The notes below the pieces were generated by a model. That model saw only the letters and a program-made list of their open reading frames with translations, had not been told where the DNA came from and made no database searches. The position numbers and the translations under genes were made by a program. Of a DNA stretch of 64,000 nt, positions 38,698-39,548 are shown piece by piece; the first letter of the stretch is position 1; every line of letters begins with the position of its first letter. The DNA lies in sequence record OR062945.1; one strand, written 5' to 3'. Origin of the DNA: Escherichia phage 308Ecol101PP.

Positions 38698-38772
38698 GGC
38701 CCTGTAGCTCAATGGGAGAGCTGTCAGCTCATAACTGATAGGTAGCTGGATCGAAACCAGCCAGGGTCACCA
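38698..38772 (+). tRNA. tRNA with CAT anticodon (Met or lysidine-type Ile), encoded CCA
   Basis: Hand-folded cloverleaf: acceptor GGCCCTG/CAGGGTC, D stem GCTC/GAGC, anticodon stem GTCAG/CTGAT with loop CTCATAA, T stem GCTGG/CCAGC. Confidence 0.85.
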
Positions 38773-38775
38773 ATT

Positions 38776-38852
38776 CGAGGCATAGCTCAATTGTATAGAG
38801 CAACGGACTTCTAATCCGTAGGTTGAAGGTTAGAATCCTTCTGTCTCGACCA
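38776..38852 (+). tRNA. tRNA-Arg (TCT anticodon), encoded CCA
   Basis: Acceptor CGAGGCA/TGTCTCG, anticodon stem ACGGA/TCCGT with loop CTTCTAA, T stem GAAGG/CCTTC; 3 nt after first tRNA. Confidence 0.85.
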
Positions 38853-38870
38853 ACTTCAAGTGAGGAAAAT

Positions 38871-39215
38871 ATGAAAGGCAATATTTATTTGGTAGTTCAT
38901 GATTTAACGTTTTATTTTAACGAACAGGATACAGTTATTTCCGACCGGTTGATTAATTCGTTATATCAACACGCTGATTACGTTTATTTTCAAAATGAAT
39001 TCGGACATTGGAAGTTTCTTAAAAACCGTTCCGGGTTAACTAGTTTTGAATACTTTGACCGTAAAGACCTTTTAAACGAAATTCCATTACAACATCGGTT
39101 CCAGAAACGCGAATCACTATACTATTGTCGCCATATACCAAATGCTGAATGTGTTTATGAAGCGATTAATCTATGGCGTAGACGTAGAGAGCAAATTGAT
39201 GATATGCCAAAATAA
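38871..39215 (+). CDS. hypothetical protein
   Basis: 114 aa from ATG after GAGGAAA RBS. Confidence 0.55.
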   Translation: MKGNIYLVVHDLTFYFNEQDTVISDRLINSLYQHADYVYFQNEFGHWKFLKNRSGLTSFEYFDRKDLLNEIPLQHRFQKRESLYYCRHIPNAECVYEAINLWRRRREQIDDMPK

Positions 39216-39518
39216 GAAGCCGGGTCGCTACCGGCAAGTCGTCGGACTGATGTTCCCTGAGTAAGGACTGGTCTTAATAAATCTTTATGATTTGTTAATA
39301 TCCCCTTACATCACAGCAGAAACGGCGCAAAGAATTATCGATTCGAGGAAATATCTTTGCCGTAAGCCGAGTAGCGTTTTTGACGGAACGTTCGGATATG
39401 GTCGAGATATGGCCTTTTAAAAATATTGAGTAGCGTCAACTGCTTAATAACCGGGTTCGAATCCCGGCGTTTCGTACAAACACTTGCCTTAGTAGGTGGA
39501 AACCCCGACAAGGTATAT

Positions 39519-39548
39519 AGCCCCTTCCGAAAGGTTGGGGCTTTTTTG
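39519..39548 (+). terminator. rho-independent terminator (module A)
   Basis: AGCCCCTTCC-gaaa-GGTTGGGGCT followed by TTTTT. Confidence 0.6.

Follow-up and report, generated by a model that had tools for sequence, protein, structure and literature searches.

Orthologues of the phage T4 stable RNAs rnaD and rnaC in an RB69-type phage, and a predicted cloverleaf-like, tRNA-derived architecture for rnaC

Results

The window (the whole 64-kb stretch of DNA that was analysed) belongs to a T4-like phage of the RB69/HX01/JS09 type (Mosigvirus-like), its best matches being 97-100% identical, and ARAGORN and Rfam agree that it holds exactly two tRNA genes. Both are on the + strand: a tRNA with the anticodon CAT at 38698-38772 (Rfam tRNA, 59.4 bits) and a tRNA-Arg(TCT) at 38776-38852 (Rfam tRNA, 71.1 bits). 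The preliminary description had reported two tRNAs separated by a gap of 3 nt and each with an encoded CCA, and ARAGORN, Rfam and the sequence itself bore this out. The acceptor stem of tRNA(CAT), GGCCCTG/CAGGGTC, is the same as in the annotated T4 tRNA-Ile, and the gene is probably an AUA-reading tRNA-Ile, orthologous to that of T4, rather than a tRNA-Met. On the same strand, the list of open reading frames contains a 114-aa ORF at 38871-39215, which matched phrog_3355 (E=1.9e-50; category function unknown). No Pfam domain was found in this ORF, which gives no functional clue. Alignment with T4 and other phages revealed that the ORF is an insert between tRNA-Arg and the homologue of T4 rnaD: in T4, rnaD starts 1 nt after tRNA-Arg, whereas in the window the 114-aa ORF precedes rnaD, and its stop codon lies within the opening nucleotides of the stretch homologous to rnaD.

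Between the end of this ORF at 39215 and the next gene at 39592, every ORF is shorter than 60 aa; the region 39216-39518, described earlier as devoid of such ORFs, indeed contains none, the longest there being of 58, 47 and 42 aa. An intrinsic terminator at 39520-39548 (+ strand; RNAfold), with GCCCC and GGGGC strands followed by a U run, closes a transcription unit that holds the two tRNAs, the 114-aa ORF, rnaD and rnaC. It consists of a hairpin at 39520-39541 and then U6, and it is preceded by another hairpin at 39484-39513 (+ strand; RNAfold), located between rnaC and the terminator. Both elements are kept in T4, IME08 and DK-13, and the hairpin at 39484-39513 accompanies rnaD and the terminator in phages where rnaC is missing. 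In the records of phages G28 and fPS-2, the region corresponding to the terminator is annotated as 'terminator'. A simple terminator scan missed 39520-39548, presumably because internal loops interrupt its stem.

Species 1 and species 2 stable RNAs have been known from phage T4 since the 1970s. The non-coding stretch of the window has matches in 806 phage records, 679 of which cover at least 80% of its length, and this recurrence indicates that the arrangement of its elements is more than chance. The match in T4 is 89% identical, and the HX01 counterpart is 100% identical, with rnaC left unannotated in the HX01 record, as in the other closest records. Positions 39212-39548 of the window align base for base with T4 rnaD, rnaC and their terminator; within them, 39212-39476 aligns exactly over the NC_000866 features 'rnaD ... 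species 2 RNA' and 'rnaC ... species 1 RNA'. The gene order tRNA-Arg ... rnaD, rnaC, hairpin and terminator is common to T4 and the window. The rnaD orthologue (species 2 RNA) is located at ~39212-39331 and the rnaC orthologue (species 1 RNA) at 39338-39476, both on the + strand, the ends being those of the T4 annotation projected onto the window; rnaC was also recognized by a covariance model. The feature is already known, being made up of orthologues of the T4 species 1 and species 2 RNAs. The preliminary description had guessed at a small RNA similar in kind to T4's stable RNAs. The alignment with NC_000866 supports that guess and makes the relation one of orthology; the small-RNA reading stood, and in place of a single RNA there are two, followed by the conserved hairpin and the intrinsic terminator. 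The elements pointed out in that description are all present and find their place in the two RNAs. The T arm CCGGG-TTCGAAT-CCCGG at 39451-39467 belongs to rnaC, GCCGG/CCGGC at 39219-39235 folds as the 5′ hairpin of rnaD, and the direct repeats, GAGTAGCGT at 39369-39377 and 39428-39436 and GATATGG at 39395-39401 and 39406-39412, are strands of rnaC helices.

We compared both RNAs with their T4 counterparts. T4 rnaC (~139-140 nt; NC_000866 70908-71046) aligns end to end over 139 nt with 2 substitutions, lies likewise at the end of the tRNA region, ahead of the hairpin and terminator that both phages share, and has the same predicted fold; there is no substantive difference between the two copies. 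With respect to T4 rnaD (119 nt; NC_000866 71053-71171), the 5′ ~50 nt, the 3′ ~30 nt, the 5′ hairpin and the closing stem are kept in the window, whereas the sequence of the central hairpin has diverged with its pairing retained, and the 3′ end reads ...CAAAG instead of the ...CACCA of T4. Some GenBank records carry an 'rnaC' annotation at the corresponding place; often these RNAs are unannotated, or mislabelled as hypothetical proteins or odd tRNAs. T4 RNAC has been seen by Northern blot (PMC9697503), and RNAC and RNAD have been classed as late RNAs (PMC9697503, PMC3014915). The function of rnaC and rnaD was given as unknown in 2010, 2022 and 2025 (PMC3014915, PMC9697503, PMC12685909), and a convergent SNP in rnaD arose during the adaptation of a T4-like phage to the host ECOR34 (2025; PMC12685909). 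No functional role for either RNA was found in the accessible literature, the early primary T4 papers lying outside its reach.

A set of 32 distinct rnaC sequences was assembled from at least 10 phage genera (Tequatrovirus, Mosigvirus, Gaprivervirus, Karamvirus, Moonvirus, Kanagawavirus, Gelderlandvirus, Winklervirus, Kagamiyamavirus and Marfavirus), and 19 of them were subjected to RNAalifold and pair counting. The consensus obtained from these 19 sequences is a four-way junction, that is, a four-arm cloverleaf, and the same junction appears in most single-sequence minimum-energy folds (RNAfold z=-4.55 for the rnaC of the window). Standard pairs occupied 97.4% of cells, compared to 85.3% in shuffled alignments (0 of 500 shuffles reached the observed value) and to 40-48% when the partners were slid by 1-3 columns. 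Double compensatory changes affected 20 of the 36 pairs, compared to 11.9 in the shuffled and 2-5 in the slid controls. With a covariance model of rnaC, the copy at 39338-39476 reached 160.4 bits (E=1e-37), and no second copy was detected in the whole 64-kb window.

The four arms, all on the + strand, are arranged as follows. P1 is an acceptor-like stem of 7 bp, supported by covariation, in which CGAUUCG at 39339-39345 pairs with CGUUUCG at 39468-39474. All 32 sequences share its two U.U mismatches without variation; the third pair is A-U in 7 sequences and G-C in 12, and the remaining four standard pairs are invariant. P2, a hairpin of ~70 nt placed directly after P1 (39346-39415), ends in the apical loop UUGACG (39380-39385). 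This arm, which comprises helices 2-5, occurs in two types whose sequences disagree at roughly half of the positions and which keep pairing and length, and 12 of its 17 counted pairs are doubly changed between the T4 type and the Melville/PEi26/F48 type. The P2 loop is 4-6 nt in size and lies 41-42 nt from the 5′ end of rnaC in each of the 32 sequences; the total length of rnaC across the family is 141-145 nt. An A-rich linker, with an invariant AAAAU, separates P2 from P3, a 10-bp hairpin (39424-39449) with the 6-nt loop CGUCAA at 39434-39439. P3 is likewise supported by covariation, with double changes in 6 of 9 counted pairs and a covarying pair closing its loop. One nucleotide further on starts P4 (39451-39467), the T arm (CCGGG, UUCGAAU, CCCGG), identified by sequence and by covariation (its middle pair is G-C in 8 sequences, U-A in 8 and A-U in 1), which runs directly into the 3′ strand of P1. 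The RNA ends in the 3′ tail U-ACA-A. The acceptor including its U.U mismatches, the AAAAU linker, both loops and the tail are (nearly) invariant and the stems vary freely, so that the alignment shows strong selection on the acceptor sequence, the linker, the loops and the length of rnaC.

Taken as its reverse complement, the P2 loop UUGACG matches the P3 loop CGUCAA at every position. This combination occurs in 26 sequences, and the 6 members of the Marfavirus clade have UUGGCG/CGCCAA, a joint change that represents a single evolutionary event and that would equally have kept a DNA-level inverted repeat intact. A single pair of hexamers would show such full complementarity by chance with a probability of ~2.5e-4. 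These complementary and co-changing loops are a new detail of this analysis, and they suggest a P2/P3 loop-loop contact, which may be intramolecular or between two molecules; because P2 is much longer than P3, an intramolecular kiss would require a sharp bend of P2.

The preliminary description had failed to fold a complete tRNA in 39216-39518. In agreement with this, ARAGORN found neither tRNA nor tmRNA in that region, and Rfam returned nothing above threshold over the stretch even at E=10, with no RF00005 match in 39216-39548. The best Rfam match in the stretch was tRNA-Sec, at 16.6 bits versus a cut-off of 47 (E=3.6), and neither rnaC nor rnaD matched an Rfam family. What rnaC shares with tRNAs is a 7-bp acceptor stem contiguous with a 5-bp T stem and its 7-nt loop, as supported by covariation; a D arm is missing, as is an anticodon arm with its 7-nt loop. 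The encoded tail is U-ACA in 26 of the 32 sequences, that of the window included, and U-CCA in the 6 Marfavirus-clade sequences; an ACA instead of a CCA makes rnaC an imperfect tRNA end. In addition, three sequences, belonging to two genera, have a disrupted T-loop motif (UGCAUGC, UGCAUCC), which indicates that a canonical tRNA elbow is not strictly required.

Among known RNAs, class II tRNAs share with rnaC the acceptor and the T arm, and P3 is placed like their long variable arm; as regards genomic setting, rnaC shares the array slot and the tRNA-like spacing of tRNA genes in phage arrays. In contrast to a class II tRNA, rnaC is without a D arm and a 7-nt anticodon loop and bears two U.U mismatches in the acceptor, and its encoded tail is U-ACA instead of the N-CCA of tRNAs, the Marfavirus clade excepted. 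In the tRNA-like domain of tmRNA, in YrlA (Y RNA-like) and in mascRNA (MALAT1), a partial tRNA shape made of acceptor and T arm recruits tRNA enzymes, be it for processing or for binding. The likeness of rnaC to these RNAs is one of principle only: no Rfam match to tmRNA or YrlA was found over rnaC, which has neither a tag reading frame nor a Ro-binding stem. We also considered a tRNA hidden within rnaC, as ARAGORN calls a 95-96-nt 'tRNA-Phe' or 'tRNA-Met' in Pet-CM3-4 and PG7, and rejected it. The anticodons of these forced calls are inconsistent, and the calls use an alternative acceptor strand, CGGAACG (39385-39391 in the window), whose G.U pair in the T4 type becomes an A.C mismatch elsewhere; the 5′-terminal strand, in turn, covaries from A-U to G-C. 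All in all, comparative analysis predicts that rnaC is a covariation-supported, cloverleaf-like and tRNA-derived RNA, yet not a tRNA.

As for rnaD, its fold (RNAfold z=-3.5) consists of the 5′ hairpin at 39219-39235, a closing stem formed by 39238-39244 with 39323-39329, and a long, sequence-variable hairpin between the strands of that stem. RNAalifold on 14 sequences gave double changes in 10 of 33 pairs. The closing pair of the 5′ hairpin shows R-Y covariation, the long-range stem is invariant, and the variable long hairpin retains pairing despite its change in sequence. The rnaD homology always starts with AGAARCCGGG (19 distinct sequences), whatever lies upstream, be it tRNA-Arg or various ORFs. 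The ...CACCA end of T4 rnaD raised the question of a decayed tRNA, a candidate that was discarded: there is no T arm, and the CCA is not conserved (CCG, CAG and CCT elsewhere, AAG in the window), so that rnaD is not tRNA-like. The two RNAs also part company in the genomes. In IME08 (Dhakavirus), tRNA-Arg, rnaD, the hairpin and the terminator are present and rnaC is precisely absent; in DK-13, an ORF-bearing insert of ~560 bp replaces rnaC; and rnaC occurs without rnaD in eight other genera. These comparisons show that rnaD is a structured RNA unrelated to rnaC, that the two are independent modules and that rnaC is gained and lost like a cassette.

In Karamvirus, Moonvirus, Gelderlandvirus, Winklervirus and Kagamiyamavirus, rnaC lies flush within tRNA arrays. 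There, it starts 5-8 nt (usually 5) past the CCA of the preceding tRNA, and the following one begins 3-8 nt past the conserved CAA tail of rnaC. In PEi26 and Kosakonia phage 305, rnaC is present although no tRNA was detected in the ~500 nt to its left or right. When IMG/VR, metagenomes and 185,579 species genomes were scanned with patterns, no more distant true homologue emerged: true matches came from T4-like and Marfavirus phages only, and rnaC was restricted to phages of Enterobacteriaceae. Other pattern matches, in unrelated bacterial and environmental contigs, were supported neither by nhmmer nor by the covariance model and were set aside as chance matches.

Discussion

The comparisons described above identify the two RNAs of the window as rnaD and rnaC and endow rnaC with the outline of a tRNA. 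The acceptor stem and the T arm are the part of a tRNA that is recognised by RNase P and by 3′-end enzymes, and the flush placement of rnaC in the tRNA arrays of other genera makes it very probable that it is cut out like a tRNA. We infer tRNA-style excision and stability of rnaC: RNase P would generate the 5′ end of rnaC from the precursor and exonuclease trimming the 3′ end, with P2 and P3 replacing the D and anticodon arms and the U-ACA tail standing at the position of the tRNA N-CCA, and the released rnaC would accumulate as a stable RNA. The action of RNase P and of 3′ trimming on rnaC is our assumption, based on its architecture and on the older T4 literature. Taken jointly, the identity with T4 rnaD and rnaC, the structure of rnaC and its tRNA-like biogenesis are put forward with high confidence.

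What rnaC does once released is a matter for more cautious statements. An invariant and yet mismatched acceptor stem is hard to ascribe to excision alone, and this favours the reading that rnaC may be a tRNA mimic that acts as ligand or decoy, its target being a factor, of host or phage, by which tRNAs are recognised at their acceptor/T-arm end. Through their complementary loops, P2 and P3 would then fix the shape of rnaC or pair two molecules. We regard this proposal, derived from comparison of sequences, as tentative. A more specific version, in which rnaC would be an anti-defence tRNA decoy that soaks up or inhibits an enterobacterial factor attacking or modifying tRNA acceptors or 3′ ends, is improbable as it stands. 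According to it, the invariant acceptor, with its two U.U mismatches and U-ACA, would bind the factor, and the P2/P3 loop contact would hold the shape. If true, such a role would account for the dispensability of rnaC in the laboratory, its cassette-like gain and loss and its confinement to phages of Enterobacteriaceae.

Among the explanations that compete with a tRNA mimic, the one that survives best, although we consider it unlikely, is that rnaC and/or rnaD are trans-acting riboregulators that base-pair with host or phage mRNAs. The pairing elements would be CGUCAA, UUGACG and AAAAAU in rnaC, and GACUGAUGUUCCCUG and AUCACAGCWGAAA in rnaD, and the tRNA-like end of rnaC would serve excision and stability only. 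Loops and linkers that are invariant while the stems vary would fit such regulators, as would the late accumulation in T4 infection (PMC9697503) and the convergent rnaD SNP on adaptation to ECOR34 (PMC12685909). However, the acceptor sequence and its mismatches are conserved well past the needs of excision, and the mutual complementarity and joint variation of the two rnaC loops speak for an internal or self contact and not for an external target. Besides, seeds of 6 nt are too short for target prediction.

Less probable is that rnaC and rnaD are processing by-products or scaffolds with no function in trans, structured spacers that would assist the cutting and folding of the tRNA-operon precursor and would persist only by virtue of their stability. 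The tRNA-like slot that rnaC occupies in arrays would agree with a spacer, and so would its absence from IME08 and its replacement in DK-13. Deletion mutants of the T4 tRNA region are viable on laboratory hosts, as known from the older T4 literature, and this is also in line with such a role. Nevertheless, a spacer would not be expected to keep its loops, its A-rich linker, two U.U mismatches and a length of 141-145 nt over at least 10 genera, and PEi26 and Kosakonia phage 305 retain rnaC with no tRNA detected within ~500 nt.

The covariation contradicts the two remaining readings, both of which we consider extremely improbable. A T arm and an acceptor-like stem that do not add up to a complete tRNA, together with the inconsistent anticodons of the 95-96-nt 'tRNA' forced by ARAGORN onto the rnaC of other phages, might be expected of neutrally drifting tRNA pseudogenes, but all helices are preserved by compensatory substitutions with statistics that contradict drift, the loops are invariant across genera and the T4 orthologues are abundant stable RNAs (PMC9697503). 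Likewise, small proteins might be encoded by the ORFs of 42, 47 and 58 aa, and 'hypothetical protein' CDSs cover the homologous region in F48, NM4.3, Kosakonia phage 305 and others, but these annotated ORFs change strand and position from record to record, the substitutions are RNA-like (paired double changes and single-base indels in linkers) and IME08 loses rnaC as a precise unit.

As a finding in this window, RB69-type orthologues of RNAs that have been catalogued in T4 for fifty years are ordinary. Their interest is modest and lies in the fact that the function of these RNAs is a fifty-year-old question, for which comparative structure offers testable handles: a covariation-supported cloverleaf, an invariant mismatched acceptor, co-varying complementary loops and a cassette-like presence in arrays. 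In addition, the rnaC alignment could seed an RNA family model, cleaning the annotation of several hundred phage genomes.

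The two hairpin loops of rnaC are complementary and change together

rnaC has two hairpin loops, UUGACG (window 39380-39385) and CGUCAA (39434-39439), whose sequences are exact reverse complements of each other. All six Marfavirus-clade sequences carry a joint change of both loops, to UUGGCG and CGCCAA. Because the loops are complementary and change together, the comparison of sequences suggests that they engage in a kissing-loop contact or mediate dimerisation of the RNA. We found no mention of this loop-loop complementarity in the searchable literature.

The preliminary description had reported a direct repeat, GAGUAGCGU, which is indeed present at 39369-39377 and 39428-39436. 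In rnaC of the T4 type, one copy forms the 5′ strand of P2's apical stem and the other that of P3. The repeat is missing from Melville/PEi26-type rnaC and is therefore not conserved, but where it occurs, in phages of the T4 type, it could make alternative pairing possible.

tRNA-like ends of rnaC and the annotations that overlap it

The acceptor-like stem of rnaC is followed by a short 3′ tail (window 39475-39479; 738-742 in the retrieved locus of Klebsiella phage F48, L022), which reads U-ACA-A in 26 of the 32 sequences compared. The Marfavirus clade carries U-CCA-A, a true tRNA-type end. The T loop also varied: three sequences from two genera (CIP9, locus L003; LC53, locus L024; and locus L019) have UGCAUGC or UGCAUCC instead of UUCGAAU, a change that disrupts the canonical T-loop motif but leaves the T stem in place.

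Annotations or calls overlap rnaC at 616-753 of L022, 442-615 of L026, 604-732 of L027, 8491-8585 of L034 and 1547-1642 of L005. GenBank 'hypothetical protein' CDSs overlap it in F48, NM4.3 and Kosakonia phage 305, and the records of PG7 and KKP_3262 place a tRNA there. ARAGORN forces a 95-96-nt tRNA onto the same RNA, called 'tRNA-Met' in PG7 and 'tRNA-Phe' in Pet-CM3-4. These CDS and tRNA assignments are probably annotation artefacts.

Neighbouring genes and natural variants lacking rnaC

The tRNA with anticodon CAT (38698-38772), which ARAGORN calls Met, has an acceptor stem identical throughout to that of the tRNA-Ile annotated in T4, and it also resembles E. coli ileX. Judged from its sequence, it is probably an AUA-reading tRNA-Ile of the lysidine type rather than a tRNA-Met. 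Whereas a single nucleotide separates tRNA-Arg from rnaD in T4, a 114-aa ORF (phrog_3355; 38871-39215) lies between them here, and its stop codon (39213-39215) falls among the initial bases that are homologous to rnaD. At the other end of the unit, directly 3′ of the terminator, stands TATAAATA (39549-39556), the T4 late-promoter consensus; the next ORF has its ATG 36 nt downstream of it, at 39592.

Between rnaC and the terminator lies a conserved hairpin, CUUGCC...GACAAGG (39484-39513). In phages without rnaC it remains attached to both rnaD and the terminator, and it may be a processing site. In Dhakavirus IME08 (L081, 685-930) rnaC is precisely absent and rnaD abuts this hairpin and the terminator; in DK-13 (L082, 480-1215) an ORF-bearing insert of ∼560 bp occupies the place of rnaC. 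IME08 and DK-13 are natural deletion and replacement variants of rnaC, respectively.
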